From Burkholderiales bacterium (GTDB lineage: Bacteria; Pseudomonadota; Gammaproteobacteria; Burkholderiales; Eutrophovitaceae), in NCBI GenBank assembly GCA_040880425.1, contig JBBDIL010000027.1:39575-103574 (forward strand): a stretch of DNA of 64,000 nt. Reading direction: 5' to 3'. Shown piece after piece: positions 1 to 59,395 of this stretch. How positions within the stretch are numbered: the first letter of the stretch is position 1; each line of letters begins with the position of its first letter. Under the pieces are notes generated by a model that saw nothing but the letters and a program-made list of their open reading frames with translations, searched no databases and had not been told where the DNA came from. A program made the translations under genes and the position numbers.

Positions 1-537
1 TTGCGCCAGCGCGAGGAAAGCGTTCGGGTAATCGTTGAAGGACACCACGCGCACGCCGGGAACGGCCCGGCGGATATTCTGTTCAGAGGTCGAACCGCGG
101 ACCGAGCTGACCCGCTTGCCGCGGAGATCTGCAACCGATCTGACTCCGGAATCCCGGTGCACCAGCAGCTTCTGGCCGGTCATGAAATAGGTGTGGCTGA
201 AATCGATCTGCCGCTCACGCTGCTTCGTGTGCGTCATCGTCGCGATGATGAGGTCTATTTTGCCCTGGGTGAGTTCCGGGACGCGGGTGGCGGTTGTCAC
301 CGGAACCAGCCGCAGTTCCACGCCGAGTTCCCTGGCGATGGCGGCCGCAAAATCCACGTCATAGCCGACGACGGAACGGCTTTCCGGGCTGATAAAACCG
401 AAGGGCGGCGTGGCATCTTTCACGCCAACGACCAGCGTGCCTCTTGCCTTGATGTCGTCGAGCAGGTCGGCGGCCGCAAGCGCCGGTACGGCAGTGAGCA
501 GGATCGCGAACAGCAGTCTGATGATTCGGGCAGTCAT
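1..537 (-). CDS. Amino-acid ABC transporter periplasmic substrate-binding protein (family 3 SBP), C-terminally truncated by window edge
   Basis: Not in the ORF track because there is no stop in the window. Hand translation from ATG at 537 gives MTARIIRLLFAILLTAVPALAAADLLDDIKARGTLVVGVKDATPPFGF...VGYDVDFAAAIARELGV...GKIDLIIATMTHTKQRERQIDFSHTYF. That is a signal peptide plus typical SBP_bac_3 motifs. Confidence 0.75.
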   Translation of the reverse strand, partial: MTARIIRLLFAILLTAVPALAAADLLDDIKARGTLVVGVKDATPPFGFISPESRSVVGYDVDFAAAIARELGVELRLVPVTTATRVPELTQGKIDLIIATMTHTKQRERQIDFSHTYFMTGQKLLVHRDSGVRSVADLRGKRVSSVRGSTSEQNIRRAVPGVRVVSFNDYPNAFLALAQ

Positions 538-545
538 GTCGTGAT

Positions 546-1421
546 TCAGGCTGGTGGTCCGAGCAGAAACTTCTCGATCGTCTGCGCGAATGCTTCCGGC
601 TGGTCGTGGTGCATCATGTGGCTCGCGCCTTCGATTCTACACTCGGCAAGCTGCCGGTAAGACGCCCGGTAAGCGTCGACGGTTTCCGTGTCGCCCTTCA
701 TGAATCGCGTTACCCAGTCCGTGCCGCTGTGGACCCACAAGGTCGGCGCGGTGATGCGACGCCAGCAGGCCATGGCTTCTTCCACGCGGTACAACACCGG
801 GTTGGTCATCTTGTGACGCGGATCCGCGCGCAGTTCGACGCGCCCCGGCGCTTTCTCTTCAGCCCAGTGGACCGCAAGAAAGCGGGCGCGTTCATCGGTC
901 AGTCCGGGCGTATTGGCCTGCAGGCGGGCGGTGACTTCTGCATACGACGCGTATGGTTTGAATCCTGAGGGCTGGCGATTCTGATCCAGCCATTTGAGGT
1001 AGCGTTCCGGCGCTTTCTCGGGCGAAGTGCGTGGCAAGCCGAAGCCCTCTGCAAGCAGGAGCTTGCCGACGCGTTGCGGACGGATACCGGCAAACAACCC
1101 GGCAACGTTTCCGCCCATGCTGTGCCCGACGATGCCGACCGGCTCATCCGGCGCAAAGTGTTCCAGCAGTGCATCGAGGTCGGCCACGTAGTCCGGGAAC
1201 CAGTACCCGCCGGGCGCCCACTGCGTAAGTCCGAAGCCGCGCCAGTCCGGCGCCAGCACATGCCAGTCTTGCGTAAAGGCGTCGACCGTAAACTGGAACG
1301 ACGCTGAGACGTCCATCCACCCGTGCAGCATGAAAAGCTTCGGCGCAGACGGATTGCCCCAACTGCGAACGTGATAGCGCAGCCCCCGGATGTCGATGAA
1401 TTCGGAACTGTCTGGTTTCAA
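546..1421 (-). CDS. Alpha/beta-fold hydrolase
   Basis: 291 aa with an HGW oxyanion region and a GHSMGG nucleophile elbow. TTG start with GAGG 7 nt upstream. Confidence 0.85.
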   Translation of the reverse strand: MKPDSSEFIDIRGLRYHVRSWGNPSAPKLFMLHGWMDVSASFQFTVDAFTQDWHVLAPDWRGFGLTQWAPGGYWFPDYVADLDALLEHFAPDEPVGIVGHSMGGNVAGLFAGIRPQRVGKLLLAEGFGLPRTSPEKAPERYLKWLDQNRQPSGFKPYASYAEVTARLQANTPGLTDERARFLAVHWAEEKAPGRVELRADPRHKMTNPVLYRVEEAMACWRRITAPTLWVHSGTDWVTRFMKGDTETVDAYRASYRQLAECRIEGASHMMHHDQPEAFAQTIEKFLLGPPA

Positions 1422-1436
1422 GATTCAACCTCTTTC

Positions 1437-1620
1437 AACACGAAGGGGCACGAAGGAAACACGAAGGCTCACGAAGCAGGCAGGAGCGGACTCAGACCAA
1501 GCAGGCTTTCGAGCCCGGTACCGATGGCGTTAACGCGTAAGCCGCTCAACATCGTTATCGCTCGAGATATCCTTCTTTCCTTCGTGCTTCCTTTGTGTTT
1601 CCTTCGTGCTCCTTCGTGTT
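1437..1620. repeat. Intercistronic long inverted repeat, element A (ACGAAG-type arms, ~90 nt spacer)
   Basis: Left arm 1437-1480 is aacacgaaggggcacgaaggaaacacgaagg.... The reverse complement of right arm 1571-1620 is aacacgaaggagcacgaaggaaacacaaagg.... 29 of the first 31 positions match. The element fills the gap between two co-oriented (-) genes. Confidence 0.8.
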
Positions 1621-2275
1621 AGCGCTGTTCCGGGTTATCGATCTTTCGCCGGCGGGCGGGGCCTTGGGCCAGGCCCTCCGCAGGGCCGAAGCTCTCCCGG
1701 CGCAGCGCGTCCGGGTGGCGCAGGTAGTCAAGAAAAAACTCGGACGAATCGAATCCCCAGAAAAGCTGGTCATCGACAGCCAGGGTCGGTACGCCGAACA
1801 CGCCGCGGGAGATGGCTTCTTCGCCGTTGCGCCGGAGGGCGTCCTTGACCGCCCGATCCGCGACCAGGGCGTCGGCGTCGCTGGCGTCCAGCCGATAGGC
1901 AAGCGTCTTCCATTCCGCCGGGTCGCCGATATCGCGGCCTTCCCGCCAAATGAAATCAAAAATCGCCTGCACCACTTCGATGCGATTGCCCAGGGCGATC
2001 GCGAGCCGCAGAGGTGGCAGCGGATTGAACGGGTGCGAAGGCGGCAGCTTCATGGGGATACCGTGGCGCCGGGCGAGCCAAAGCGCATGGCGGAAAGTAA
2101 ACGTGCGCTTCGGCGCGATCTCCGCGGGGCCGAGCTGGCCGTAATGGTCCAGCAGTGCCGCGAACAGCACCGGTCTCGGCGTAATCGTCGCGTGCCGGGA
2201 CAACTCCTCAATCTTCGCCGACTGCAAATAGGCGAAGGGCGAGATGAAGTCGAAATACCAGTCTGCAGTGACCAT
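1619..2275 (-). CDS. 2-hydroxychromene-2-carboxylate isomerase family protein (DsbA-like thioredoxin fold)
   Basis: 218 aa. The N-terminal WYFDFISPFAY motif and the C-terminal GVFGVPT...LFWGFD motif are typical of the HCCA isomerase/DsbA-like family. Confidence 0.8.
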   Translation of the reverse strand: MVTADWYFDFISPFAYLQSAKIEELSRHATITPRPVLFAALLDHYGQLGPAEIAPKRTFTFRHALWLARRHGIPMKLPPSHPFNPLPPLRLAIALGNRIEVVQAIFDFIWREGRDIGDPAEWKTLAYRLDASDADALVADRAVKDALRRNGEEAISRGVFGVPTLAVDDQLFWGFDSSEFFLDYLRHPDALRRESFGPAEGLAQGPARRRKIDNPEQR

Positions 2276-2308
2276 ATTTTATTTCCCGCTTCCTGCGAAG
2301 GTGAATAC

Positions 2309-2481
2309 AAAAAGCGAAACACGAAGACACAAAGGAATTCAAGCAAGAACACGAGTTGTTGCGGCGTGACAATGCTCCGTCATTGTCCCAGGGTCTCGAT
2401 GACCTGTGGCTTCCACTCACTTGTGAAAAGACTTTGTTTCAGTTCTTCTTCGTGTCTTCGTGCCTTAGTGTTTCGCTTTTT
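2309..2481. repeat. Intercistronic long inverted repeat, element B (GCGAAACACGAAG-type arms)
   Basis: Left arm is aaaaagcgaaacacgaagacacaaagg.... The reverse complement of the right arm is aaaaagcgaaacactaaggcacgaagacacgaag.... It lies between the EamA stop and the HCCA-isomerase start, both on the - strand. Confidence 0.8.
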
Positions 2482-2496
2482 CGGGGTGTTGCCAGC

Positions 2497-3405
2497 TTAC
2501 TCCTGTCCCATCAGCGGCTCGGTTCGTTCATGCCTGCGGATCGTCAGCCACGACACCAGCGCCAGCGCGATGCCGATCAGCAGCATGCCGGCGAGTTCGA
2601 TCGCAGCCGGCCTTTCGCCCAGTTGCAGCCAGGATGCCAGCGTGGCGATGACCGGCACACCGAGCGATGACAGGCTGGTGGTGCCGGCCGGCAGCCGGTG
2701 CAGTACGTACAGCCACATCGCCCAGCCTACGCCGGTGGCGATCGCGCCGTTGAATAGCGCACAGGCGATGAAGGTGCCGGTCCAGTCGATCGTGCTGTCG
2801 TCGAAAGCGGAATCGAGTATCAGTACCGGTATCGTACCGAACAGCATCTGCCAGAAGGTAAAAGAAATCACGTCCACCGGCTCGCGGTTGTGCAGACGCT
2901 TTGCATAGACCACACCGATTGCCCAGCATATGCCTGCCAGCACGGCCAGCACCTTGCTCAGCAGCGCAGTGCGCATGGTCCATGGCTGCAGGATGAGAGT
3001 CAGCCCGATCAGCGCCAGCGCAATCGCCAGCCACTGCCAGCCGCGGATGCGCTCGCCCAGCACCGGCCAGGCGAAAATCAGCACCCAGAAGGGCATGGTG
3101 AATACCAGTACCGAGGTCTTGCCCGCGCCGCTCCCGGACAGCGCCCAGGTGTTGAGGATGATGAACGCCGCGGTCTGTACCAGCCCGATGAAGATCGCCC
3201 AGCGGAAGTGCTGTGGCCGCAGCGATGCGCGTGACCACAGCATGAACACGAACAGCGACGCGCTGCCGAGCACCACGCGTATCGCCGAGAAATCCAGCGG
3301 GCTCGCATACTCGAGTGCGATCTTCGAGGTGATCCAGCTGTAGCCCCATAACAGGACCAGCGCAATCATGACCAGACCCGCCTTGCGGGTTTCGCGCGCG
3401 CTCAT
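2497..3405 (-). CDS. EamA/DMT-family transporter
   Basis: This is the C-terminal 302 aa of the 883-aa track ORF, starting MSARETRKAGLVMIALVLLWGYSW.... It has about ten hydrophobic helices and a duplicated EamA pattern. The upstream part of the track ORF is antisense to dnaE. Confidence 0.85.
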   Translation of the reverse strand: MSARETRKAGLVMIALVLLWGYSWITSKIALEYASPLDFSAIRVVLGSASLFVFMLWSRASLRPQHFRWAIFIGLVQTAAFIILNTWALSGSGAGKTSVLVFTMPFWVLIFAWPVLGERIRGWQWLAIALALIGLTLILQPWTMRTALLSKVLAVLAGICWAIGVVYAKRLHNREPVDVISFTFWQMLFGTIPVLILDSAFDDSTIDWTGTFIACALFNGAIATGVGWAMWLYVLHRLPAGTTSLSSLGVPVIATLASWLQLGERPAAIELAGMLLIGIALALVSWLTIRRHERTEPLMGQE

Positions 3406-3603
3406 GCCGGGCCGATGCGCGGCCCCGATGGCCAGAACAAGCGGTGGTGAAAGGTCATGTGATTGAAAAGATTCGAATCTGAAACGGTGAGACGGCGCGG
3501 TTGCGCGCTGCGGAGACCGCGCATTGTACTGAATCGCCATGAGCGGTCGCACGCTGGTCGTGTGTTCGTGCGTAACCGGGGCCGCACGACGTAAAATACC
3601 CGC

Positions 3604-6600
3604 ATGGATCGGCCGCGCTTCGTACACCTCCGTTTGCACAGCGAGTATTCGATCTCGGACGGCATCGTGCGGCTGGACGATGCATGTGCAAAGGCCGCAG
3701 AAGACCAGATGCCGGCGCTTGCGCTCACCGATCTCTCCAACCTGTTCGGCATGGTCAAGTTTTACCAGGCCGCGCGCGAGAAAGGCGTCCAGCCGATCAT
3801 CGGCTGCGATGTGTGGATCAGCAACGACGCTGAACGCGACAAGCCGCACCGGCTGCTGCTGCTGGTGCAGTCCCGGGAAGGATATCTGCGGCTCTGCGAC
3901 TGGCTGACGCGCGCGTTTCAGGGTAACCAGCACCGCGGCCGCGCGGAGATCCGGCGGGAGTGGCTGGGCGAGCGCGGCACCGACGGGCTGATCGCGCTTT
4001 CGGGTGGGCAATATGGCGACACGGGCCACGCGCTGCTTGTCGGCAATGCCGAATCCGCACAGCGCTTCGCCGGCGAATGGGCCGGCCTGTTCCCGGGCCG
4101 GTATTACATCGAGATTCAGCGCGCCGGACACCCTCAGGCCGAACACCTTGTGCAGCAATCGATCCGGCTCGCATCCCGCCTTCGATTGCCGGTGGTGGCC
4201 ACACACCCCGTGCAGTTCCTCACGCCCGGGGAATTCACCGCGCACGAAGCCCGCGTCTGCATCTCCGAGGGCTACGTGCTGTCCGACCAGCGCCGGCCGC
4301 GGGTTTTCACGGATCAGCAGTACTTCAAGACCCAGGACGAGATGGCGGAGCTGTTCGCCGACCTGCCGCAGGCGCTGGAAAACGCGGTGGAAATCGCGCG
4401 ACGCTGCAGTTTCGAACTGGAGTTGGGCAAGGCCAGGCTGCCGCTGTTTCCGACGCCGAACGACGTGCCGTTCGAGACCTACCTGCGCGAGCAGGCGCTT
4501 GCCGGGCTGGAGCAGCGCATGGCGAAGCTCTACCCGGAGCCGGCCGAGCGTGAGAGGCAGATGCCCCGCTACCGGGAACGCCTGGATTTCGAATGCGACA
4601 CCATCGTGCAGATGGGCTTCCCGGGGTACTTCCTGATCGTTGCCGATTTCATCAACTGGGCCAAGACCAACAGCGTGCCGGTTGGCCCCGGGCGCGGTTC
4701 CGGCGCAGGTTCGCTGGTGGCGTATTCGCTGGGCATCACCGACCTCGATCCGCTGCGCTACGACCTGCTGTTCGAGCGCTTCCTCAACCCGGAACGGGTA
4801 TCGATGCCGGACTTCGACGTCGACTTCTGCCAGGACGGCAGGGATCGCGTGATCGACTACGTGCGGCGGAAGTACGGTGGCGAGTCGGTTTCGCAGATCG
4901 TCACTTTCGGCACCATGGCGGCGAAAGCAGTGGTGCGCGATGTCGGCCGGGTGATGGAATGGAACTACGGCCGCACCGATGAACTGGCGAAACTCATTCC
5001 CTTTCAGCCGGGCAAGCTGATCACGCTGCAGATGGCGCGCGAGATGGAGCCGCGGCTGAAGGAGCGCGAAGAGACTGACGAGGAAACCCGCGAGCTGCTG
5101 GCGCTGGCCGAACAGCTCGAAGGTCTGACCCGCAACGTCGGCATGCACGCCGGTGGCGTGCTGATCGCGCCGGGCAAGCTGGCCGATTTCTGCCCGCTGT
5201 ATGCGGCATCCGGTTCGGAGAGCGTAGTGTCGCAGCTCGACAAGGACGACGTCGAATCCATCGGCCTGGTGAAGTTCGATTTTCTCGGGCTGACGACGCT
5301 CACCATCCTCGACTGGACACTGCGCTTCATCAAGCGCCTGGATCCGTCATCGGATATCCGCCTGGAGGAGCTGCCGCTGGACGATGCGGCCGCTTACCGT
5401 ATTTTCTCCAGCGCCAACACCACCACGGTATTCCAGTTTGAATCGCGTGGCATGCGCGAGCTGCTCAAGCAGGCGCGCCCCGACCGTTTCGAGGACATCA
5501 TCGCGCTGGTCGCGCTGTACCGGCCGGGGCCGATGGAACTGATCCCGGACTTCGTCCGGCGCAAGCAGGGCGTGGAGCGTGTCGAGTATCTCGATCCGCG
5601 CCTGGAGCCGATCCTGAGTCCGACCTACGGCATCATGGTCTATCAGGAGCAGGTGATGCAGATCGCGCAGGTCATCGGCGGTTACTCGCTGGGCGCCGCC
5701 GACCTGCTGCGCCGCGCGATGGGCAAGAAGAAGGCGGAAGAGATGGCGCAGCATCGCGACGTCTTCACGGCGGGCGCGGTAAAGAACGGCGTGACCGAAG
5801 GCAGGGCGCGACAGCTGTTTGACCTGATGGAGAAATTCGCCGGCTACGGTTTCAACAAGTCGCACGCCGCCGCCTATGCGCTGGTCGCATACCAGACCGC
5901 GTACTTCAAGGCGCATCATCCGTCCGCGTTCATGGCGGCAAACCTGTCGGCGGTGATGGACGACACCGACAAGGTGCAGCAGTTCTACGAGGACGCGGTG
6001 GCAAACAATCTCGAAGTGCTGCCGCCGGACATCCAGACCGGCGAATATCGCTTCGCGCCGGTCGATACGAAACAGATCCGCTACGGGCTCGGCGCAGTCA
6101 AGGGCACCGGCGAATCCGCCATCAACGAGATCATCCGGGCGCGAGACGAAGCCGGACCGTTCAAGGACCTGTTCGATTTCTGCCGCCGTGTCGACAAGCG
6201 CATCGTCAACCGGCGCACGGTCGAATCGCTGGTACGCGCCGGCGCATTCGATTCCATCGACGATCATCGCGCGCGCCTGCTGGCATCGGTTGGCATTGCG
6301 ATGGAAGCCGCGGAACAGGAAAGCCGCGCCGCGTCGCAGGTCAGCCTGTTCGGCGAATCCGGGCCGGACGTGGAAGGGCCGAAGCTGATCGAGACGCCGC
6401 GCTGGGACAAACGCGAGCAACTGCAGAACGAGAAACTTGCGCTCGGCTATTACTACAGCGGCCACCCCTTCGAAGCCTACGCCACCGAAGTGCAGGAATT
6501 TTCGCGCACCCGGCTGGGCGGTATCCAGCCGCAGGGGCAGGTCGTAGTGGTTGCCGGCATCATCTATGCGATCCGCACACAACAGACACGTCGCGGCAGG

Positions 6601-7430: not shown

Positions 7431-7674
7431 AAAAGCGAAACACGAAGGCACGAAGAAAAGCGAAAACAGAAAAGAGTTCTCGACGCTGACGAATCAATTC
7501 CGTATGGATACCTGCAACAGTGGTCGCGGCAACTGAGTGCGAAGATCGGATTCTACTTCGTGACTTCGTGACTTCGTGACTTTGGCGCCGGCATCACGTT
7601 GGCTTCGCAAACGTGAGCCTGCTCCTCAACAAGTCGCGATGCGGCGTGTTGTGTGTTTCGCTCTTCTTTTCGTT
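7431..7674. repeat. Composite intercistronic inverted-repeat element C
   Basis: Left arm 7431-7474 (aaaagcgaaacacgaaggcacgaag...). Internal pyrimidine arm 7556-7580 is cttcgtga repeated three times. Second right arm 7651-7674 (gtgtgtttcgctcttcttttcgtt) is complementary to gcgaaacac in the left arm. It lies between metG and acyP, both on the - strand. Confidence 0.75.
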
Positions 7675-7680
7675 CAACGC

Positions 7681-10949: not shown

Positions 10950-11094
10950 ACCGCAGAGGCGCAGAGGCGCGGAGAAGGCGCCAAGTTACTTGCGAACGGG
11001 TACTCATTGCGGCAGATAGTCAGGCAATCCTTGGTGTTTGCGATCGTTAGCGCTTCTCAGCGTGTTTCTCTCTGCGTCTCGGCGACTCTGCGGT
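10950..11094. repeat. Intercistronic long inverted repeat, element D (GCAGAG-type arms)
   Basis: Left arm is accgcagaggcgcagaggcgcggagaaggcgc. The reverse complement of the right arm is accgcagagtcgccgagacgcagagagaaacacgctgagaagcgc. It lies between apbC and dcd, both on the + strand. Confidence 0.75.
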
Positions 11095-11687: not shown

Positions 11688-11748
11688 CAGTTTGTTGAAT
11701 TTCGCTGGATTGACGAGCCGGCTGTCGATCGTTCAGTCAGTTCAAAGC

Positions 11749-11899
11749 GCTCAACGCAGAGAGCGCGGAGGACGCTGGGGAAGATCGGTCGATCCGAGTG
11801 AAGTAACACCGAGAATTCACGAACACGCGGGTTCGCGCTGACCGCGATCAAGTCGCTTTTGTTGTGCCTCAGCGCCCCGGCGTTCTCCGCGTTGTTCGC
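11749..11899. repeat. Intercistronic long inverted repeat, element E (GCAGAG/GCGGAG-type arms)
   Basis: Left arm is caacgcagagagcgcggaggacgctgggg. The reverse complement of the right arm is acaacgcggagaacgccggggcgctgagg. It lies between dcd and the ODC-like gene, both on the + strand. Confidence 0.7.
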
Positions 11900-12017
11900 T
11901 TCCTTTGACGGCGATCCGTAAGGCAGTCCGGTTTCGATGGATTGCCCGCGCGCGAACTCCGGGCGGCGCGCACTGTCTCTCCGTCCCCGGCCGCTTGCCG
12001 GCAGCCGAATATTTCAC

Positions 12018-12045
12018 TTGATTTGCAGACCGGGGGGCCTATAAT
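12018..12045 (+). promoter_or_regulatory. Candidate sigma70 promoter (TTGATT-16 nt-TATAAT)
   Basis: TTGATT at 12018-12023 and TATAAT at 12040-12045, with a 16-nt spacer. It sits upstream of the uORF and the ODC-like gene. Confidence 0.35.
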
Positions 12046-12206: not shown

Positions 12207-13379
12207 ATGACCCTGCGCCCCGTGCTCTCCCGCAGCGCCGAAACCGAAGCCCTGCTCGATACGCACCCGGAATCCGGCCTGGATTTCCGCCATGTCCGCG
12301 AAACCCTGCAACAGGGCTACACGAGCCCCTTCCTGCTGATCGACACCCAACTCGTTCGTGCCAAGTACCGGCGATTCCACGCCGCGATGCCGCGCGTGCA
12401 TGCGCATTACGCGGTGAAGGCGAATCCCGACCCGCGCGTGGTGCGGGCGCTGGCGGAAGAAGGCGCGGGTTTCGAGATCGCTTCGATTGCGGAACTGGAT
12501 CTCCTGCTGTCGCTTGGAGTCGCGGCCAACGCCGTGCATTACAGCAATCCGATCAAGGCGCGGGACTATATAGCCTATGCCGCCGCCAGGGGCGTCGAGT
12601 GGTTTGCGCTGGACAGCGTGGAGGAACTGCGCAAGATCGTCTCGGTGAAGCCGGACGCCAGGCTGTACCTGCGCATCGACACCCCCAACATCGGCAGCGA
12701 TTGGCCGCTGTCCGGAAAATTTGGAGTGCCGCTTAAGGAAGCGGGCGCAATCCTCGACGCGGCCGCCGAGCTTGGCGCCGATCTTTGCGGCGTCACTTTC
12801 CATGTCGGGTCGCAATGCCGCAACGCCGAGAACTGGCGCGTCGCGATCGACAACTCGAAGAAGATCTTCCGCAAGATGCGCCTTAAGGGGCTGCGGCCGC
12901 GGCTGCTGAATATCGGCGGCGGATTTCCGGTGCGGCTGACCAAGCCGATTCCCTCGATCGAAACCATCGGCGAGATCGTGAACGAATGTATTGCGGACCT
13001 GCCGGATGACGTGCGGGTGATGGCAGAGCCGGGCCGCTACCTGGTTTCCGATGCCGCGTATTTCGTGTGCAGGGTGATCGGCACGCTGACACGCGCCGGG
13101 CGCCGCTGGGTGTATCTGGATACCGGCATGTTCGGCGGCCTGCTGGAAAGCACCCAGGGTCTGCAGTACGAGCTGCGTACGGACCGCGGCGGAAAGCGGG
13201 TGCCTTGGCATGTCGCAGGCCCGACCTGCGATTCAGTTGATGTGCTGCTGCAGGATCACATGCTGCCCGAAGACCTGGCCGACGGGGACTTCATCTATAT
13301 CCCGAATGCCGGGGCCTACACGACGGCATACGCCAGTAATTTCAACGGTTTTCCGCTCCCCGAAGTGCGCGTTGTCTGA
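12207..13379 (+). CDS. Type III PLP-dependent decarboxylase (alanine-racemase fold), ornithine/lysine decarboxylase-like
   Basis: 390 aa with the PLP-lysine motif YAVKAN, then HVGSQ, GGGFP, EPGR and the CDS motif (GPTCDSVD) of the Orn/DAP/Arg decarboxylase group IV. Confidence 0.85.
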   Translation: MTLRPVLSRSAETEALLDTHPESGLDFRHVRETLQQGYTSPFLLIDTQLVRAKYRRFHAAMPRVHAHYAVKANPDPRVVRALAEEGAGFEIASIAELDLLLSLGVAANAVHYSNPIKARDYIAYAAARGVEWFALDSVEELRKIVSVKPDARLYLRIDTPNIGSDWPLSGKFGVPLKEAGAILDAAAELGADLCGVTFHVGSQCRNAENWRVAIDNSKKIFRKMRLKGLRPRLLNIGGGFPVRLTKPIPSIETIGEIVNECIADLPDDVRVMAEPGRYLVSDAAYFVCRVIGTLTRAGRRWVYLDTGMFGGLLESTQGLQYELRTDRGGKRVPWHVAGPTCDSVDVLLQDHMLPEDLADGDFIYIPNAGAYTTAYASNFNGFPLPEVRVV

Positions 13380-14970: not shown

Positions 14971-15045
14971 CTGCACCAGGATTGGAGCGACATCGAGTTG
15001 TAGTGGCACAGATAACAACAAAGACATTAAGACGTTGCGCTTGCG

Positions 15046-15090
15046 CCTCACCCTTCTCCCCCGGGCGAAGGGCGGGGGATGAGGGAAGCG
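15046..15090. repeat. GC-rich imperfect hairpin (REP-like) between translocon and cargo genes
   Basis: cctcacccttctcccccgggcgaagggcgggggatgagggaag. The core stem tcccccg pairs with cggggga. It resembles common proteobacterial REP hairpins. Confidence 0.3.
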
Positions 15091-15154
15091 CGCGGTTCTT
15101 GAATCTACATTGCCCCGAAGCTGAGCCGGGGCGCTGAAAGGGAGATTGCCCAAA

Positions 15155-16585
15155 ATGCCGCAGGAAACTTTCAGACTGAGCCCGAGAGGCATGCTGCTCG
15201 CCTCGATCGCCGCCGCGTTCCCGCTCGCCAGCCAGGCTGCGCCGGTGGCCCGCGTCGACTTTGCCGTCGGCAACGTGATGGCGGTTGCACCCACCGGGCA
15301 AACCCGCCAGCTCGCCAAGGGCGCGCAGGTCGAGGAAGGCGAGACGGTCAACACCAACGCCGGCCGCGCGCAGTTGCGCTTCGTCGACGGCGCCTATGTC
15401 TCGTTGCAGCCGGAGTCCGAATTTCGAATCGATCAGTACCGGTATGAAGGCCGCGAAGACGGTTCCGAGAACGCCCTGCTGAGCCTGTTCAAGGGCGGCC
15501 TGCGCACCATCACCGGTTTCATCGGCCGCAGCAACAAAAAGAACTACCAGGTCACCACCACCGTCGCCACCATCGGCATCCGCGGAACCGAGTACACCAT
15601 CCAGTACGGCGAATCGATTCGCGGCACGGTCGGCGACGGCCAGATAGAAGTCTGCAACGGTGCCGGCTGCCTGAACGTGACCGACGGCGAAACCTACTAT
15701 GTCGCCAATCAGGACACGCAGCCGGTGCTGACCAACAAAGGTACCGATCTCCCGCCCGCCCCGCCGGAAAGCCCCCCGCAGAAGTTTACGGAGAACGAGA
15801 ATGTAGACGAGGAGGGAAATCTGTGTACCCTCTTTCCGGAACAATGCCTAGCGCCGTCAACGACAACAATACTAACCGGTACCATTACTGCTAACGTTGC
15901 GGCAATCACAACAGTGGAATGTGAAGGCCCCTGTGTGGACCAAGTTACGATAGACGGCACCACAGCAACGCTCAGTAACGCTGGTGCTTTGGTCAGTTTC
16001 GGATCGCAGACGCTGAACTCGTCAATCTCCAATGGAAACGACGGTATTATTGCATGGGGTACGGCGCCCTCATCTACTGGGGGTGAGTTTTCCTTAACAC
16101 CCACCGATACGATTCATTATGTAGTAGGGGCCCCATCTAGTAACGTATCCGCCTTGGGAGGTCTCACAGGAACGTATTCTTTGCTCGGCGGCACGGATCC
16201 TACCGGAGTAAATTCGGGACTGACTTCCACTACCAATAAACTTAATAGCGCCGACCTTTCGTTTAACTTCGCAGATGTAAGCGCATCTGGTTTTCTGAGG
16301 ATGAGCTGGACGCTCGAGGGGCAATCAATAAACACAGCTGGATCGGTATCGAGCTTCTCGGGCCCAACGTTCTCTGGGAACTTGCTCGATACAGACCAGT
16401 TATGTTCTGGTACTTGTGCGTCGGCTTTTGTTAATGGTTTTTTCGTGGGTTCAAATGCCGAACGCGCAGGATTGAGCTATCACGTGACTGGCGAATCGCT
16501 TAGCGATGATGGGCACATTGGTGCTGCTGCGTTGACGCAAACGGGGCTTACATTGAGCGATATTCGCTTGCAAGAGGGTCAATAG
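15155..16585 (+). CDS. Secreted FecR-domain protein with C-terminal TbpB/fHbp-type 8-stranded-barrel motifs (candidate Slam-dependent cargo, non-lipoprotein)
   Basis: Sec signal with a signal peptidase I (SPase I) site (PLASQA/AP) and no lipobox Cys. The FecR-like N-domain reads VDFAVGNV...GRAQLRFVDGAYVSLQPESEF...ATIGIRGTEY. There are four close Cys pairs. C-terminal motifs are GTYSLLGG, ADLSFNFADVSASGFL, FSGPTFSGN and GFFVGSNAERAGLSY...HIGAAALTQ. For comparison, the fHbp end is GIFGGKAQEVAGSAEV...HIGLAAKQ. ATG 15155 is preferred to the track TTG 15146. Confidence 0.7.
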   Translation: MPQETFRLSPRGMLLASIAAAFPLASQAAPVARVDFAVGNVMAVAPTGQTRQLAKGAQVEEGETVNTNAGRAQLRFVDGAYVSLQPESEFRIDQYRYEGREDGSENALLSLFKGGLRTITGFIGRSNKKNYQVTTTVATIGIRGTEYTIQYGESIRGTVGDGQIEVCNGAGCLNVTDGETYYVANQDTQPVLTNKGTDLPPAPPESPPQKFTENENVDEEGNLCTLFPEQCLAPSTTTILTGTITANVAAITTVECEGPCVDQVTIDGTTATLSNAGALVSFGSQTLNSSISNGNDGIIAWGTAPSSTGGEFSLTPTDTIHYVVGAPSSNVSALGGLTGTYSLLGGTDPTGVNSGLTSTTNKLNSADLSFNFADVSASGFLRMSWTLEGQSINTAGSVSSFSGPTFSGNLLDTDQLCSGTCASAFVNGFFVGSNAERAGLSYHVTGESLSDDGHIGAAALTQTGLTLSDIRLQEGQ

Positions 16586-17139
16586 ATTCGTTTCCGTTTC
16601 GATTCAGGATCGCTTTTGAACTTCGGAGTATGGTTTGGCCGGCTGTTTCGAATGCTGCCGAAGGAGTAGTACTATAAACGCCTAGCGATTATTCATTTGA
16701 ATGCATGACCTGTGCATCGGAGTTCTGTGCCAATTGTCCGCCGCGCATGTATGCCAGCCAGGTAATCTACGGCTTAGTTTGATTCGAACAATCGACCGGC
16801 ACGTCAAGTCAATCCAAAAGACAGTACCCATCGTTTTCCGAGAGCAAAGCACTGGCTCAGAAGTGTGTGCCGAGAAGGCAATCCGTTCTGCAGATTAGGC
16901 GAAAACTCTCAAGACGGCGCCTGCAGATGTCTCTTCAAGCTCTCGGAATCTCGCGCCCGAGATGGTTGTATGAAAGCGTGGCGAACCGCTGCTGTCACAC
17001 AGCGCTGTTGGCGATGCTATTACGCAGCTAAAATGCTCGGCCCGTAACTACATAGCGGTAACACCCATTGGTCTGAATATGGATTTCAGCCAATGAAGTG
17101 ACTCAGTAGCACAATGCGCTGATTGATCGCGAGTGCCAG

Positions 17140-19347
17140 ATGACGAATTGCGACAAAATTCTAACGGAGGCACTAGAACTAGTCTGTCGCGGTCGATGGC
17201 GCGACGCAATATGCCTGCTGGAAACAGTCATTGCCAACTCTGGGGAGACGTCCGAGACATATTTCCTTCTTGGTGCTGCAAGACATCGCCTTGGCCACTT
17301 CGCGCAGGCGGAAACGGCTTTCGTGCGCTGCCTTGAACTGGACCCCGGGCATAAACAAGCTGTGCTTGCAAGCGCGACCGTTCTTGGAAAGCAGAGGCGG
17401 TTCGAAGAGGCAGGGCGCCTGCTTCGAGATTATGTCGAGCGCGTGCCATACGACCCCGAGTTCAGATTTGCTTATGCCATAACTCTAGAGCATGGTGGTG
17501 CGTATGAGGCTGCGTTGAAGCAGTACGATCATGCATTAGAGTTGCGGCCTGGATACCTAGAAGCGTTAATGAATCGAGGACACGTTCTTTGTGTCATAGG
17601 GCAGACTGAGGAGGCGGTTATAAACAACCGACGTCTCGTTCAGGTTGCTCCAAAAAGCGCAACCTCGCATTTCAACCTCGCAGATTCATTACTGGCGACA
17701 AAAAATTTTGAGTCCGCAATATTGGCATGCAATCAAGCGATAGCCCTTGATGGTAATTTCACAAAAGCTTATATCAATCGGGCTCTTGCCAATATTGCGT
17801 TGGGGCGCGTTCTTGAGGGGGAGCGCGATCTTGCTCATGTGCGTGAATCGAATCCGACAGCATTAGAGGCGTTCCAGGCGGGATTCGCGAAACGAGCGGG
17901 AGGTTTATTTCACTCATTTGATTCGAGAAGTCTGTATTTACATCTTCAGTATGAATGGATTGCGGAGTGTGATTGGGCGAGATGGGGCGAATTCGTTAGT
18001 TCGCTGGAGTCTTTAATACTGGAAAGTGCAGAGACACTGCAAGCCTTAGATGATCCTAATCTGCCGTTTAGGGCACTGGGTTTCCCTATCAGCAAAAAGG
18101 CCTATGCAGCTCTAGTAGTATCGGTTGCTCGCGGCGTCTCTCGTCGCACCAGGAGTTGTGCCCCGTTTGTTTCCAGAAAAGGGACGCAAAACCGCATTCG
18201 CATTGGATATATTTCGCCAGACTATCGAACCCACCCAGGTGCATACTTGACTCGTCGCATGTACGGATTACATGACCGTGAGCGCTTTGAGGTTTTCGCT
18301 TATGCCCTTTACCCCGATGATAAATCTGAAGTGCGTAAAGACATTGAGAGGGGTTGCGACGTATTTCGCGATGTCTCGCGCTTCAATGCGAAGACAATAA
18401 TCGACCTGATTCGACGTGATGCAATTGATATTGCAGTTGATGTATCTGGTTATACCAATTTCACGCGACCGGACATTTTTGCGGGACGGGTTGCACCCGT
18501 GCAGGTACTTTATCTTGGATATCCCGGATCGCTTGGCGCGGACTGGATTGACTATGCGATCGTGGATCATGTCGTGTGTCCGGTCGATGCGGATACGTGG
18601 TGGAAAGAGAGATTGGTGCGTCTGCCGCATAGTTACTTCATCACAAACAACCAAGAGAGAGTCGATATCGAGGGCTTCAGTAGAACTGCGCTCGGATTAC
18701 CTGACGGTGCTTTCGTTCTCTGCTGTTTTAATAATCCTTTCAAGATAGACCCTGCGACGTTTGATGTCTGGATGAGAATTCTGCAGCGTACCGAAAGGGC
18801 GATACTATGGATACTGCAGACCGTCGATACGGTGTCAAGGAATTTGCGCAGCGAGGCGCATAGACGCAATGTCGATCCCGAGAGATTGGTTTTTGGATCA
18901 TTCATTTCGCCGCACGAACGACACCTGGGGCGTTATTACTTTGCCGACCTTTTTTTAGACACGAAATACTATAACGCGCACACTACCGCGATCGATGCAT
19001 TATGGTGCGGTGTCCCCGTAATCACGGTACCCGGCGATACGATGCCATCCCGCGTCGGTGCGAGCCTGCTCAATGCAATCGGCCTGCCTGAACTGATCTG
19101 CAAGGACTGGACGGAATACGAGGAGAAGGCGGTCTGGCTTGCGACGCACCCGGAAGAACTGGTTGCGCTGAAGCGCAAGCTGGCTGCGAACCGGGACAGC
19201 TATCCGCTGTTCGACACCGAAGGCCAGGTGCGGGCGCTGGAAGCGGCGTACGAAGAGATGTGGCGGCGTCATCAGGCGGGGCTGCCGCCGGCCGCTTTCG
19301 ACGTGAAGCCGCTGGTTAACAGGAACTTCCGCAATGCCTGGCACTGA
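17140..19347 (+). CDS. TPR-repeat protein with C-terminal GT41 (O-GlcNAc transferase/SPINDLY-like) glycosyltransferase domain
   Basis: 735 aa with no signal peptide. N-terminal TPRs are followed by IRIGYISPDYRTHPGAYL..., VLYLGYPGS.GADWIDY and TDxYNAHTT...D.LW.GVPV.T..G, typical of COG3914/GT41. Confidence 0.85.
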   Translation: MTNCDKILTEALELVCRGRWRDAICLLETVIANSGETSETYFLLGAARHRLGHFAQAETAFVRCLELDPGHKQAVLASATVLGKQRRFEEAGRLLRDYVERVPYDPEFRFAYAITLEHGGAYEAALKQYDHALELRPGYLEALMNRGHVLCVIGQTEEAVINNRRLVQVAPKSATSHFNLADSLLATKNFESAILACNQAIALDGNFTKAYINRALANIALGRVLEGERDLAHVRESNPTALEAFQAGFAKRAGGLFHSFDSRSLYLHLQYEWIAECDWARWGEFVSSLESLILESAETLQALDDPNLPFRALGFPISKKAYAALVVSVARGVSRRTRSCAPFVSRKGTQNRIRIGYISPDYRTHPGAYLTRRMYGLHDRERFEVFAYALYPDDKSEVRKDIERGCDVFRDVSRFNAKTIIDLIRRDAIDIAVDVSGYTNFTRPDIFAGRVAPVQVLYLGYPGSLGADWIDYAIVDHVVCPVDADTWWKERLVRLPHSYFITNNQERVDIEGFSRTALGLPDGAFVLCCFNNPFKIDPATFDVWMRILQRTERAILWILQTVDTVSRNLRSEAHRRNVDPERLVFGSFISPHERHLGRYYFADLFLDTKYYNAHTTAIDALWCGVPVITVPGDTMPSRVGASLLNAIGLPELICKDWTEYEEKAVWLATHPEELVALKRKLAANRDSYPLFDTEGQVRALEAAYEEMWRRHQAGLPPAAFDVKPLVNRNFRNAWH

Positions 19348-31027: not shown

Positions 31028-31828
31028 ATGAGAATCGCGCTCGGGCTTGAATACGATGGCGCTGCATTCTGCGGCTGGCAGACTCAGCCGGACCGTTGCA
31101 GCGTGCAGGATGCGCTCGAGTCCGCGCTCGGGCAGATCGCAACGCAGCCGATCGATACCACCTGCGCGGGGCGCACCGATGCAGGCGTACACGCGCTCTC
31201 GCAGATCGTGCATTTCGACACCGAGATGGCGCGCCCGCACACTGCGTGGACGCGCGGTGTGAACGCGCTGTTACCGGAGAGCGTAAGCGTGCTTTGGGCC
31301 AGGCAGGTCGATATGGCGTTCCATGCCAGGTATTCCGCCATATCCAGACGCTATGTCTACTATCTCCTGGACCGTCCGCAACGCCCGGGACTGCTGAACG
31401 GGCGCGTCGGCTGGTTTCATTTTCGGCTCGACATCGATCGTATGAGCGAGGCGGCCGCCTTCCTGATCGGAGAGCATGATTTCAGTGCCTTCCGTGCGGC
31501 AGAGTGCCAGGCAAAGACCGCGGTGCGAACCTTGCATTTCGTTGCGATCTCCCGGCGAGAGAATCTGGTGCGCCTCGAGTTTTCGGCCAACGCGTTTCTA
31601 CATCACATGGTGCGCAATATCGTCGGCTCGCTCGTCTACGTCGGGTGCGGACGCCAGCCGGCGCAATGGATGCGTGAACTGCTGCTGTCGCGCGACCGCA
31701 ATGCGGCGGCGCCGACATTCTCCCCGGCCGGACTCTATTTTGCGGCAGTAGAATACGATCGTGATTGGGGCCTGCCGCCGGAATCAGGCACCACCGAGTT
31801 CGAGGAAGCGCTTTTCGGCGCGGTCTGA
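31028..31828 (+). CDS. truA: tRNA pseudouridine(38-40) synthase
   Basis: 266 aa with YDG..F.GWQ and the catalytic GRTDAGVHA. Confidence 0.95.
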   Translation: MRIALGLEYDGAAFCGWQTQPDRCSVQDALESALGQIATQPIDTTCAGRTDAGVHALSQIVHFDTEMARPHTAWTRGVNALLPESVSVLWARQVDMAFHARYSAISRRYVYYLLDRPQRPGLLNGRVGWFHFRLDIDRMSEAAAFLIGEHDFSAFRAAECQAKTAVRTLHFVAISRRENLVRLEFSANAFLHHMVRNIVGSLVYVGCGRQPAQWMRELLLSRDRNAAAPTFSPAGLYFAAVEYDRDWGLPPESGTTEFEEALFGAV

Positions 31829-33666: not shown

Positions 33667-33770
33667 CAAGGATGAGGGCGGAAGCATGAAGGATGAAGCG
33701 AAAGCAGGACACGCAACCGGGGCGGAGCCGAGCCTGGACTTCATCCTTCCGCCTTCATGCTTCATCCTTG
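33667..33770. repeat. Intercistronic inverted repeat, element F (ATGAAG-type arms) inside trpB-trpA
   Basis: Left arm is caaggatgagggcggaagcatgaaggatgaag. The reverse complement of the right arm is caaggatgaagcatgaaggcggaaggatgaag. Spacer is ~30 nt. Confidence 0.8.
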
Positions 33771-33779
33771 CATAAAACC

Positions 33780-34583
33780 ATGTCCCGCATTGCTTCCACC
33801 TTCGAGAGACTCAAGTCGCAAGGCCACAAGGCGCTGATTCCGTTCGTAACCGCGGGCGACCCGGCGCCGGACATGACGGTGCCGATCATGCACGCGCTGG
33901 TGGCCGGCGGCGCGGATGTCATCGAGCTGGGCGTACCCTTCTCCGATCCGATGGCGGACGGCCCAACCATCCAGCGTTCCAGCGAGCGGGCGCTGAAACA
34001 CGGCGTCGGGCTGAAGGATGTGCTGCGATTCGTCGCCGGGTTTCGCCAGAAGGACACCGTCACCCCGGTCGTGCTGATGGGTTATGCAAACCCGATCGAA
34101 GCCATGGGCCACGCAGTCTTCGCGCAGCAGGCGAGCGATGCAGGCGTGGATGGCGTGCTGGTGGTGGACTATCCGCCGGAGGAAAGCGTGGCGTTGACGC
34201 AGGAACTCAAGCCGCGCGGCATCGATTCGATATTTTTGCTGGCGCCGACTTCCGTGGAAACTCGCATGGACGACGTGGCGCGAGTGGCGAGCGGATACGT
34301 CTATTATGTTTCGCTCAAGGGCGTCACCGGCGCCGCCAGCCTGGATCTGAAAGAGGTGGCCGCGAGGATTCCCCAGATACGCGCGCACGTGAACCTGCCC
34401 ATCGGTGTCGGTTTTGGCATCCGCGACGCGGCCACGGCAAAGGCGATCGCGGCCGTATCCGACGCGGTGGTCATCGGGAGCTGGCTGGTGCAGGAAATCG
34501 AGAAGTCGCCGGCGGCAGACGTGCTGAACAATATAACCATGCTGCTTGGCGGTGTCCGTCGTGCGATGGACGGTGTCGCCTAG
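33780..34583 (+). CDS. trpA: Tryptophan synthase alpha chain
   Basis: Starts [28 protein letters not shown]. Also [14 protein letters not shown]. The track start at 33693 lies inside the repeat. Confidence 0.95.
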
Positions 34584-39530: not shown

Positions 39531-39582
39531 TTCCGATCCCCCGGCAGGTTGACAGCAGTGTCGGCCGGGAGTAGCTTCTGTT

Positions 39583-39636
39583 CCGCGCCGATTTGATGAA
39601 CAGCTTGCGGGCGCGTTAGAAATCCAGCTAAAGCGC
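39583..39636 (+). promoter_or_regulatory. Candidate SAM-II-like (H-type pseudoknot) riboswitch in the metZ leader
   Basis: P1 is cgcgcc (39584-89) paired with ggcgcg (39610-15). Loop gauuu (39590-94) pairs with tail aaauc (39620-24). Loop agcu (39602-05) pairs with tail agcu (39626-29). The AGCUAAAG tail recalls the SAM-II consensus (recalled from memory, not aligned). Confidence 0.45.
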
Positions 39637-39647
39637 GTCGGTCATCG

Positions 39648-39684
39648 AACCCGCTTTGCGAAAGCTGAGCGGGTTTTTTGTTTT
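39648..39684 (+). terminator. Intrinsic terminator/attenuator in the metZ leader
   Basis: aacccgct (39648-55) pairs with agcgggtt (39668-75), followed by ttttgtttt. It lies 48 nt before the metZ ATG. Confidence 0.65.
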
Positions 39685-39731
39685 CCGGACGGAGGTAGCC
39701 GGCCGGGACGGGGCATTTGAAGAGGTCGGAG

Positions 39732-40913
39732 ATGCGTTGGGACGAACTGGAAATGGAAACGCTGGCGGTGCGTGCGGGTATACACCGCAGCCAATTCGGC
39801 GAGCACTCGGAGGCGTTGTATTTGACTTCGAGTTTCGTGTTTCGCGATGCCGCCGAGGCGGCGCGCCGCTTCCTCGGCGAGGAAGACGGCATGGTCTATT
39901 CACGTTACACCAACCCGACGGTCGCCGCATTGCAGGAAAGACTGGCGGCGATGGAGCGGGCAGAGTGCTGTTTCGCCACTGCGTCGGGAATGTCGGCGAT
40001 CCTCGCCTGCGTCATGGGACTGATGAAGAGCGGCGACCATGTGGTTGCCTCGCACAGCCTTTTCGGCGCCACCGTGCAGCTCTTCAACGGCATCCTCAAG
40101 CGTTTTGGCGTGGAGGTGAGCTGGGTTGCTTCCACCGATGCCGCAGCCTGGGAAGCGGCGATCCGGCCGTCCACCCGCATGTTGTTCCTGGAGACGCCCT
40201 CCAATCCGATGACCGAAGTCTTTGACATTGCCGCACTCGCGGATGTCGCGCATCGGCATGGCGCCCTGCTCGCAGTCGACAACTGCTTCTGCACGCCGAT
40301 CCTGCAAAGGCCGCTGGAACTCGGCGCCGACATCGTCATTCATTCGGCGACCAAGTATCTCGATGGCCAGGGCAGGGTGCTGGGCGGTGCCGTGCTCGGG
40401 CGCAAGGACTTGCTGTTCGAAGGACTGAACGGATTCCTGCGCAGCGCCGGCCCGGCGCTTTCGCCGTTCAATGCCTGGGTGATTCTGAAGGGGCTGGAGA
40501 CCCTGAAACTGCGCATGGACGCGCATTGCCGGTCCGCGCTGGAGATCGCGACCTGGTTGCAGGCGCATCCAAAGATCGAGCGTGTCTACTATCCAGGCCT
40601 TTCGTCGCATCCGCAACACGCGCTCGCTGCCCGTCAGCAGAGCGCCGGCGGCGGCGTCGTGTCATTTGTCGTCAAAGGCGGGCGCGAGGCCGCATGGAAG
40701 GTCATCGATTCCACCCAACTGGTTTCGATTACCGCCAATCTCGGCGACGCCAAGACTACCATCACGCACCCTGCAAGCACGACTCACGGACGGCTCGCAC
40801 CGGAACTGCGTCAGGCCGCGGGCATCGTCGAGGGTCTGGTCAGGGTTGCGGTGGGACTTGAAGCGCTTTCTGACATTCAGTCCGATCTGGCGCGAGGGCT
40901 CGCGAAGATCTAG
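39732..40913 (+). CDS. metZ: O-succinylhomoserine sulfhydrylase
   Basis: Cys/Met-metabolism PLP family (SRYTNPTV, PLP site SATKYLDGQG). ATG 39732 has GAGG 6 nt upstream. The track TTG 39717 is less likely. Confidence 0.9.
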   Translation: MRWDELEMETLAVRAGIHRSQFGEHSEALYLTSSFVFRDAAEAARRFLGEEDGMVYSRYTNPTVAALQERLAAMERAECCFATASGMSAILACVMGLMKSGDHVVASHSLFGATVQLFNGILKRFGVEVSWVASTDAAAWEAAIRPSTRMLFLETPSNPMTEVFDIAALADVAHRHGALLAVDNCFCTPILQRPLELGADIVIHSATKYLDGQGRVLGGAVLGRKDLLFEGLNGFLRSAGPALSPFNAWVILKGLETLKLRMDAHCRSALEIATWLQAHPKIERVYYPGLSSHPQHALAARQQSAGGGVVSFVVKGGREAAWKVIDSTQLVSITANLGDAKTTITHPASTTHGRLAPELRQAAGIVEGLVRVAVGLEALSDIQSDLARGLAKI

Positions 40914-47812: not shown

Positions 47813-47837
47813 TGTTCTCTTCTGGTTGCCGGCAAAC

Positions 47838-47876
47838 GAAGAGGAGTGTGCGGACGTATCCGCCTCACTCCTCCTG
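47838..47876 (-). promoter_or_regulatory. dnaK-dnaJ intercistronic hairpin
   Basis: gaagaggagtg-tgcgga-cgta-tccgcc-tcactcctcctg forms a nested purine/pyrimidine stem. Confidence 0.4.
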
Positions 47877-59255: not shown

Positions 59256-59380
59256 GAGACACAGAGTCGCAGAGAAAAATACAGCACCAGATGACAGAGC
59301 CAACTTGCCGTCCCACAGCGGTCCCCGGAACACCTTCGGATTCTTCGTTGCAGGTGCTTTTCTGTGTGCCTCCGTGTCTC
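59256..59380. repeat. Intercistronic inverted repeat, element G (GAGACAC/GCAGAG-type arms) inside carA-carB
   Basis: Left arm is gagacacagagtcgcagagaaaaatacagcacc. The reverse complement of the right arm is gagacacggaggcacacagaaaagcacc. Spacer is ~64 nt. Confidence 0.8.
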
Positions 59381-59395
59381 CGTGGTTGATTCGAA

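Follow-up and report, generated by a model that had tools for sequence, protein, structure and literature searches.

Purine-first inverted repeats in operon gaps of a Burkholderiales bacterium resemble gene-less copies of a cross-phylum foldback element

Introduction

Several families of repeats form long hairpins inside bacterial transcripts. In Coxiella burnetii, the intervening sequence (IVS) in helix 45 of 23S ribosomal RNA (rRNA) has a 28-bp terminal stem with an S23p open reading frame (ORF) in its loop; the 5′ side is purine-rich and carries tandem heptamers (AGAAGA + GACAGAT, three to four times) whose copy number varies between strains, and the stem is cut by RNase III (PMC4990558). 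Repetitive extragenic palindromes (REPs), ERIC sequences, Correia elements and IVSs are usually confined to a genus or family. The mRNA hairpins of Correia elements are RNase III substrates. Here we describe hairpin-forming elements, A–G, in gaps between the genes of a 64,000-nucleotide stretch from a Burkholderiales bacterium (contig JBBDIL010000027.1, positions 39,575 to 103,574; hereafter the window), together with further copies, H–J, just past the window start. The words and ends of their arms recur from Planctomycetota to Proteobacteria, and we consider A–J to be, more probably than not, gene-less copies of a terminal-inverted-repeat foldback element with a distribution across bacterial phyla.

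Results

A first-pass annotation of the window had described at least seven gaps that each hold a purine arm, a unique spacer of 30–95 nt and a pyrimidine arm. All seven are present in the sequence; the architecture stands, although the spacers reach about 120 nt. In A–G every arm is made of two or more tandem words of 7–10 nt that end in RAG, and the purine-rich arm lies 5′ of its complement. A, B, D and F were found by an inverted-repeat search, and C, E and G by folding of intergenic gaps together with a search for purine arms. Element A (1437–1620, minus strand) has 31-nt arms at 1437–1467 and 1590–1620, 122 nt apart, that are 94% complementary in the inverted-repeat search (29/31, the figure already given in the annotation); its word-built arms extend over 1437–1476 (four CACGAAG) and about 1579–1620, around a unique loop. 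On one side the element shares 2 nt with the stop codon of a DSBA-like gene; on the other, 15 nt separate it from the TTG start of a hydrolase gene. Element B (2309–2481, minus strand) has 26-nt arms (2309–2334 and 2456–2481; 88% complementary, 121 nt apart) with the outer end AAAAAGCGAAACACGAAG, and is located between an EamA transporter gene and the DSBA gene, 33 nt upstream of the DSBA start. Element C (7431–7676, minus strand), between metG and an acylphosphatase gene, is composite: its left arm (7431–7478) faces a right arm that is split into 7556–7580 (three copies of CTTCGTGA) and 7650–7676 by about 70 nt of inserted sequence.

The remaining four elements are on the plus strand. D (10950–11094; arms 10950–10975 and 11069–11094; words CGCAGAGG) fills the gap between apbC (mrp) and dcd. 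E (11745–11901; arms about 11745–11780 and 11867–11901; words CGCAGAG/CGCGGAG) lies downstream of dcd, is more decayed than the other window copies, and is followed by a promoter-like site at 12018–12045 that was returned by a promoter scan. F (33667–33770; arms 33667–33698 and 33739–33770; words GATGAAG/CATGAAG) separates the stop codon of trpB (33664) from what is probably the true start of trpA (33780), and G (59256–59384) sits between carA and carB; the left arm of G (about 59256–59278) is decayed, and its right arm (about 59358–59384) terminates in the canonical CTCCGTGGTTGA.

We found that CACGAAG occurs 24 times in the window, compared with 11.4 ± 3.1 times in shuffles (0 of 100 shuffles reach 24), with the copies clustered in A, B and C. 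Furthermore, the arms pair better than shuffled controls, a property on which the annotation had made its reading depend: when the sense (minus) strand was folded, A reached −90.6 kcal/mol (z = −6.95), while the value for B was −64.3 kcal/mol (z = −4.33), and in neither case was any of 200 shuffles as stable. G+C in the window is 62%, and its genes are of the housekeeping type (dnaE, metG, apbC, dcd, trpFBA, accD, carAB and others); the named sources of DSBA homologues point to an uncultured betaproteobacterium. A–D, F and G lie between co-oriented genes. The earlier statement that every copy does so is correct for these and does not extend to E, which lies downstream of dcd and before the promoter-like site.

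The elements continue beyond the window. Among public contigs, L001 (Logan assembly, SRR27977663) alone encodes exactly the DSBA protein between A and B; it is 100% identical to window positions 1–4789 and extends past the window start, where it carries H, between a substrate-binding-protein (SBP) gene and the first permease gene; I, between two permease genes, with perfect arms (30/30); and J, after the second permease gene. The 17-mer AAAAGCGAAACACGAAG that the annotation had noticed in B and C is indeed common to both, and J has it as well. In the run EamA–B–DSBA–A–hydrolase–SBP–H–permease–I–permease–J, elements occupy five of the six consecutive junctions. That A and B bracket a single gene is therefore true as a fact and is not special, being a by-product of the local density (about ten copies in 68 kb).

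Such positions bear on whether the stems act as intrinsic transcription terminators or attenuators between genes. A T-run does follow the stem foot on either strand in B, C and J (GCGAAAC...GTTTCGCTTTTT), but a terminator scan does not call the elements, the loops measure 40–120 nt, and the stems of A, D, F and G come without a U-tract. In addition, the sites lie inside the trpB–trpA, carA–carB and ABC-transporter operons, where termination would be harmful. We consider this explanation extremely unlikely.

Next, we scanned 185,579 species genomes for three tandem CACGRAG-type words and obtained at least 120 matches. Those listed come from Planctomycetota, Acidobacteriota, Chloroflexota, Verrucomicrobiota, Bacillota (Heliobacteria), Cyanobacteria, Gemmatimonadota and the alpha, beta, gamma and delta Proteobacteria, over ten phyla in all, and include isolates such as Herpetosiphon aurantiacus DSM 785 and Geothrix limicola. 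Viral contigs also carry the same words and termini, with at least as many matches as are listed. Further copies, which the annotation had proposed to look for, were thus found both in L001 and across many phyla. The sharing of words and ends across phyla and viral contigs implies either very broad horizontal spread or a universal constraint.

Across this family an arm is an array of two to nine words of 7–10 nt that end in RAG (CACGAAG, CACGGAG, CGCAGAG, GATGAAG and others). The canonical outer ends are T(C/A)ACCACGRAG...CTYCGTGGT(G/T)A, and loci that were folded show the same architecture and share (TT)CACCACGRAG...CTYCGTGGTG(AA). Among the local copies the outer ends read TCAACACGAAG in A, GAACCACGGAG in I, TCAGCCACGGAG in H and CTCCGTGGTTGA at the right of G; B, C, D and F have variant ends. 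Inverted complementarity extends to the 4 nt beyond CCACG...CGTGG, which give 127 matches where 103 ± 5 are expected (P = 0.0005). The family has a polarity, with the purine arm first in almost every pair: among the matches listed, 75 of the 137 arms with full flanks find their complement no more than 600 nt downstream, compared with 4 that have one upstream, and in the viral contigs listed the partners are downstream in 41 cases and upstream in 1. A crude strand caller, right for roughly 85% of flanks, placed 51 copies between co-oriented, 13 between convergent and 13 between divergent genes, and 7 inside ORFs. Co-oriented placement is not above background in these counts, and is therefore not a defining property of the family.

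Not all arms are paired. About 40% are 'solo', with no partner within 2.5 kb, and most of the roughly 55 solo arms keep a canonical end. In the Caldilineaceae metagenome-assembled genome (MAG) locus L105 (770–950, 4020–4410 and 6790–7410), arms with the pyrimidine words CTCCGTGGCC and CTCCGCGTCC and the end GGACAAAAAAGG stand in direct tandem arrays with periods of 49, 59 and 210 nt, so arms can multiply head-to-tail as well as in inverted pairs. In a Chromatiaceae MAG (L106), a canonical purine arm at 2582–2606 and its near-perfect complement at 4280–4307 lie 1.7 kb apart. Between them are two ordinary genes, one for a TrmB-like methyltransferase and one for a short-chain dehydrogenase, so the pair may be one large cassette or two unrelated half-elements.

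Orthologous junctions were compared in relatives. L128, a 559-kb metagenome contig whose DSBA protein is 72% identical, is syntenic with the window, with the gene order metG–acyP–(lhr)–dnaE–EamA–DSBA–hydrolase–SBP–permease–permease. In it the sites of A, B, C and I are empty, the gaps being 26, 2, 42 and 43 nt, respectively. For the site of D we examined 80 metagenome loci that encode close Dcd relatives. Among the 36 that have apbC upstream of dcd, the two genes overlap as ATGA or are separated by at most 35 nt in 17. The same gap is filled by purine-first word hairpins with different words in the window (CGCAGAGG), in L132 (GGGACGAG), in L162 (GGATTGAG, nine times in one arm against three times in its partner) and in L187; in L210 a hairpin with the word ACGCAAAG lies in a longer gap of 242 nt that also holds a terminator-like hairpin. 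Presence/absence differences at orthologous sites are thus seen against L128 and many dcd relatives, which are distant relatives. At the level of sequence, the comparison shows the window elements as sequence added at junctions where the genes of relatives lie close together or overlap, not as conserved regulatory hairpins. With empty sites in L128 and with words and termini across phyla, the annotation's idea of a repeat family comparable to miniature inverted-repeat transposable elements (MITEs), Correia elements or IVSs gained support.

L128 lacks the hairpins but retains two solo word runs. One (GTCACGAAGACACGAAGAC, 500–590) lies directly ahead of the acylphosphatase start; the other (GAACACGAAGCACGAAGAG, 12470–12740) is in the SBP–permease gap and has no clear partner arm. 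The bracketed gene itself (1619–2275, minus strand), which encodes a DSBA-like 2-hydroxychromene-2-carboxylate isomerase, is context only and stands outside the elements. Its closest homologues (85–91% identity) were dropped as a comparison of filled and empty sites, as they lie in unrelated gene contexts without elements. These homologues (L122–L127, L130 and L131) occur in three different non-syntenic contexts, the syntenic copy being only 72% identical, and the gene may have been exchanged or may be a member of a mobile paralogue family.

The relation between the two arms was analysed next. The annotation had seen preservation of pairing rather than of sequence in the arms, and had offered several sub-families as an alternative. 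Selected pairing should bias mismatches towards G·U on the sense strand. We counted 14 G·U, 11 A·C and 29 transversions on the sense strand of copies of known strand, and 71, 85 and 141, respectively, in 51 co-oriented copies from other genomes. An orientation-free overdispersion test gave P = 0.51, there was no strand bias per element, and the median arm identity was 0.88. The mismatches look like the strand-symmetric decay of an inverted DNA repeat. Since G·U is not in excess, nothing in them points to selection on an RNA strand; the claim of preserved pairing did not hold, and several sub-families fit better.

These counts also bear on the explanation that the hairpins are selected cis-acting RNAs which evolved in place for processing, stability or attenuation, their pairing kept by compensatory evolution. 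Such RNAs could well have the very stable sense-strand folds of A and B, the placement of window copies between co-oriented genes, arms that match each other within a copy better than they match the arms of other copies, and stem feet at stop and start codons. However, the mismatches show no sense-strand G·U excess and no strand bias, with transversions as many as transitions; the hairpins are absent from the orthologous junctions of L128 and from most dcd relatives; the same termini recur in unrelated genes, phyla and viral contigs; and about a third of family copies are in convergent or divergent contexts. We regard selection of this kind as improbable.

A protein-coding gene is linked to the arms. 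Inside the long element L009 lies an ORF whose product matches TIGR04256 (GxxExxY protein; E = 2.4e-42), a PD-(D/E)XK nuclease-like family with a restriction-enzyme fold (PF13366, PDDEXK_3). In the word-selected loci, six of six GxxExxY ORFs adjoin such arms, either inside one hairpin (L009, L081 and L005) or between two complete hairpins (L061, L085 and L025). Clustering of the small ORFs beside arms in about 2 Mb of these loci returned GxxExxY and housekeeping ABC ATPases only, with no transposase recurring, and GxxExxY is the only recurrent small neighbour of the arms. In addition, about 45 of the 117 GxxExxY homologues in which the motif could be located have N-terminal tails like MNRQDAKDAK..EP, and several have C-terminal tails like LGALGDLAV. 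These tails are translated arms of another word, ACGCCAAGG, as the DNA of two homologues confirms, and in L332 a perfect 32-nt inverted repeat surrounds the GxxExxY ORF. The window copies are gene-less, though family members elsewhere enclose or flank the gene. The annotation's idea of ORF-less, IVS-like elements was strengthened by these findings: gene-bearing relatives exist, and the Coxiella IVS has the same layout.

Within the window, a GxxExxY-like tblastn match at 31361–31702 (minus strand) was discarded as spurious, being antisense to truA and having an internal stop. One GxxExxY protein (P0121) matches residues 362–431 of PDB 5e4r chain A (E = 1.1e-05), a chain deposited as ketol-acid reductoisomerase; a sequence search found no structure of a GxxExxY protein. 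In the literature searched, no link between GxxExxY and hairpins was found.

We also considered whether the arms are DNA-level binding-site arrays for a host or element protein, or cruciform sites, the RNA hairpin being incidental. A recurrent cargo with a restriction-enzyme fold, words at roughly helical spacing, an outer end that is conserved across phyla, strand-symmetric mismatches, and the existence of solo arms and direct arrays all fit this explanation. On the other hand, the words differ widely within one genome (CACGAAG, CGCAGAG and GATGAAG) and between lineages (GGATTGAG and ACGCCAAG), variation that is hard to reconcile with a single binding protein. This explanation, too, appears improbable to us.

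The sister copies B, C and J have arms that are 96–100% identical over 26–30 nt and loops that are unrelated. Since arms are shared while loops are unrelated and free of GxxExxY remnants, it is the arms that propagate and not the loops.

Gene structure is known for 11 junctions, and in each of them the predicted fold takes in nearly the entire gap: 0–11 nt lie between the stop codon and the stem, and 2–17 nt between the stem and the start codon. In nine of the 11, this predicted fold leaves no single-stranded Shine–Dalgarno-like motif. GGAGG/GAAGG is abundant in the purine arm, as is CCUCC/CCUUC in the pyrimidine arm. In a model based on these folds, each copy inside an operon mRNA would form a long stem-loop with the whole insert looped out, and the hairpin would place the upstream stop and the downstream start codons at the stem foot. 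A ribosome terminating there would melt the base of the stem, and re-initiation at the neighbouring start could follow, so that a coupling such as that of trpB–trpA or apbC–dcd would survive the insertion. The elements are perhaps tolerated because the hairpin brings stop and start codons together. By analogy with IVSs and Correia elements, the long and nearly perfect duplex would be a likely RNase III substrate. The elements may be mainly selfish or neutral passengers and not selected regulators, and GxxExxY proteins acting in trans might have a role in their spread.

Some features of the ends and arms touch on translation. The right end CGTGGTGA(A) of the family consensus (59373–59386 in G) contains GGTGA, the 3′ half of an extended Shine–Dalgarno sequence; the left end UCACC is found unchanged within the 16S rRNA 3′ tail, and the arms repeat GGAGG and CCUCC. 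This may be a coincidence, or the elements may be designed to offer a ribosome-binding site whichever way they are oriented. The longest trpA ORF begins at an ATG inside the purine arm of F and runs in frame through the whole element, which adds 29 codons (33693–33780); the Pfam match and the conserved N-terminus MSRIAS... indicate 33780 as the real start. The elements matter in practice for gene callers, which are led to give proteins spurious tails (MNRQDAKDAK... at the N-terminus, ...LGALGDLAV at the C-terminus) and to misplace starts, as with trpA here.

Other features of the window were recorded. A short hairpin at 47834–47875 (GAGGAGTGTGCGGA...TCCGCCTCACTCCTC) has its purine arm first, and one at 15038–15092 has the reverse order, with the pyrimidine arm first; each could be a decayed family member or a terminator. 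The region 15146–19347, possibly foreign DNA, has an unusually low third-position G+C (0.53–0.64, compared with about 0.8 elsewhere) and contains genes for a FecR-domain protein and a TPR/GT41 glycosyltransferase; the gap of 554 nt before it (16586–17139) is without an element. A SAM_alpha (SAM-II) riboswitch at 39575–39651 (plus strand) scores 40.5 bits against a gathering score of 36 and lies upstream of a gene for a PLP enzyme of Cys/Met metabolism (39717–40913), in a genome that looks betaproteobacterial.

Discussion

The analyses described above favour the explanation that A–J are gene-less copies of a cross-phylum foldback element, and a number of observations weigh against it. We found no target-site duplication of 2–9 nt at any boundary offset in 49 copies. 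No transposase-like gene was present among the genes scanned at 1–19.3 kb of the window, in keeping with the annotation's remark that none is nearby (two ORFs at 19.4–20.7 kb and most later genes were unscanned), and there was none in L001 either. Neither the 64-kb window nor L001 has a GxxExxY gene, and a profile hidden Markov model run on six-frame translations detected no GxxExxY remnants in the loops. With neither gene near and the loops remnant-free, mobility is inferred from presence/absence patterns and shared arms. Unrelated loops between near-identical arms are unlike a simple deletion-derived MITE, and the solo arms and the direct arrays of L105 imply that the propagated unit may be the arm and not the pair. 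The nearest syntenic relative is distant (72% DSBA identity), so that loss in the L128 lineage is possible, and the repeated filling of one junction with different words could mean local generation and not insertion. Finally, the coupling and RNase III steps of the model rest on predicted folds and analogy.

The missing target-site duplication would be expected if HUH/Y1 enzymes were at work, as in REP/BIME-type palindromes spread by a REP-associated tyrosine transposase (RAYT, IS200/IS605-like Y1) encoded elsewhere in the genome. The high local density, the intergenic and operon-internal positions, and the existence of solo units and of tandem or inverted arrangements are also in keeping with such a system. 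However, the individual arms are not palindromes and end in TTCACCACG, with no conserved GTAG-type tetranucleotide, and stems of 25–45 bp with loops of 7–220 nt are unlike the 20–40-nt hairpins of REPs. In the 2 Mb of word-selected loci no RAYT gene recurs beside arms, only GxxExxY, and no Y1 transposase was noticed in about 68.5 kb of the source genome. We therefore consider spread by a RAYT very unlikely, and a cross-phylum foldback element remains the explanation that we favour.

The elements land exactly at the points of translational coupling between operon genes, and their build seems to make them harmless at such sites. In addition, they connect two poorly understood subjects, the large and uncharacterised GxxExxY (PDDEXK_3) family and the origin of rRNA intervening sequences. 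A bolder proposal, which we put forward as speculative and doubtful, is that the hairpins are the ends of unrecognised cross-phylum mobile cassettes that enter stop/start gaps without target-site duplication, that their mobility, or a homing reaction directed at the hairpin or cruciform, depends on the small GxxExxY PD-(D/E)XK proteins, and that the 23S IVSs are the rRNA-resident branch. If true, the GxxExxY family would gain a function, and the proposal would bear on the long-open question of how intervening sequences arose.

Among described systems, the 23S IVSs of Coxiella and Leptospira share with these elements a long stem made by terminal inverted repeats, a purine-rich word array on the 5′ side, a loop ORF that is optional or decaying, and a sporadic distribution, and IVSs are likewise regarded as selfish. 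In contrast, the window elements lie in mRNA intergenic gaps and not in the 23S rRNA helices (9, 25 or 45) from which IVSs are excised without re-ligation, the word sequences differ, and the cargo is GxxExxY (PF13366) where that of IVSs is the four-helix-bundle S23p (PF05635). An Rfam scan found no rRNA in the window. Because the window copies are outside rRNA they are not IVSs, and the IVS-like idea is a good analogy. Correia elements (NEMIS), the MITEs of Neisseria, are similar in length (100–160 bp), terminal inverted repeats, intergenic position and co-transcription with flanking genes. However, Correia copies have their internal sequence in common, cause duplication of a TA target and are found in a single genus, whereas the elements described here have unrelated loops, no target-site duplication, word-array arms and cross-phylum termini. 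Of the traits by which MITEs are recognised, terminal inverted repeats and presence/absence at orthologous sites were found; target-site duplication and internal sequence shared with a transposase-bearing parent were not.

REP/BIME and ERIC (IRU) sequences resemble the window elements as high-copy palindromes in transcribed intergenic regions of operons with effects on mRNA stability or processing. They differ in that REPs are GC-rich palindromes of 20–40 nt with a conserved tetranucleotide and an associated RAYT gene, that ERIC copies are conserved along their whole length, and that both lack asymmetric purine/pyrimidine arms built of words. Mobile insertion cassettes (MICs), in which inverted repeats of the insertion sequence (IS) type surround passenger genes, are alike in their conserved ends and unrelated or optional cargo, but use the ends of known IS and their transposase. 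The mycobacterial MIRUs are alike in inserting exactly between the stop and start codons of operons with coupling kept, but they are direct repeats with small ORFs, not hairpins. Integron attC sites were set aside, as the termini do not fit RYYYAAC/GTTRRRY cores and the flanks are housekeeping genes (trpBA, carAB, metG and dcd), and a CRISPR-like reading was rejected on sequence and gene context. No Rfam family matched the elements at gathering or permissive thresholds in the window or in 18 canonical loci, and no description of the arm sequences or hairpins was found in the literature searched. The elements behave like REP, ERIC, Correia or IVS hairpins, yet they fail the defining tests of each of these families. 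They are set apart by the absence of target-site duplication, by arms that are arrays of words, by GxxExxY cargo and by ends that are conserved across phyla.

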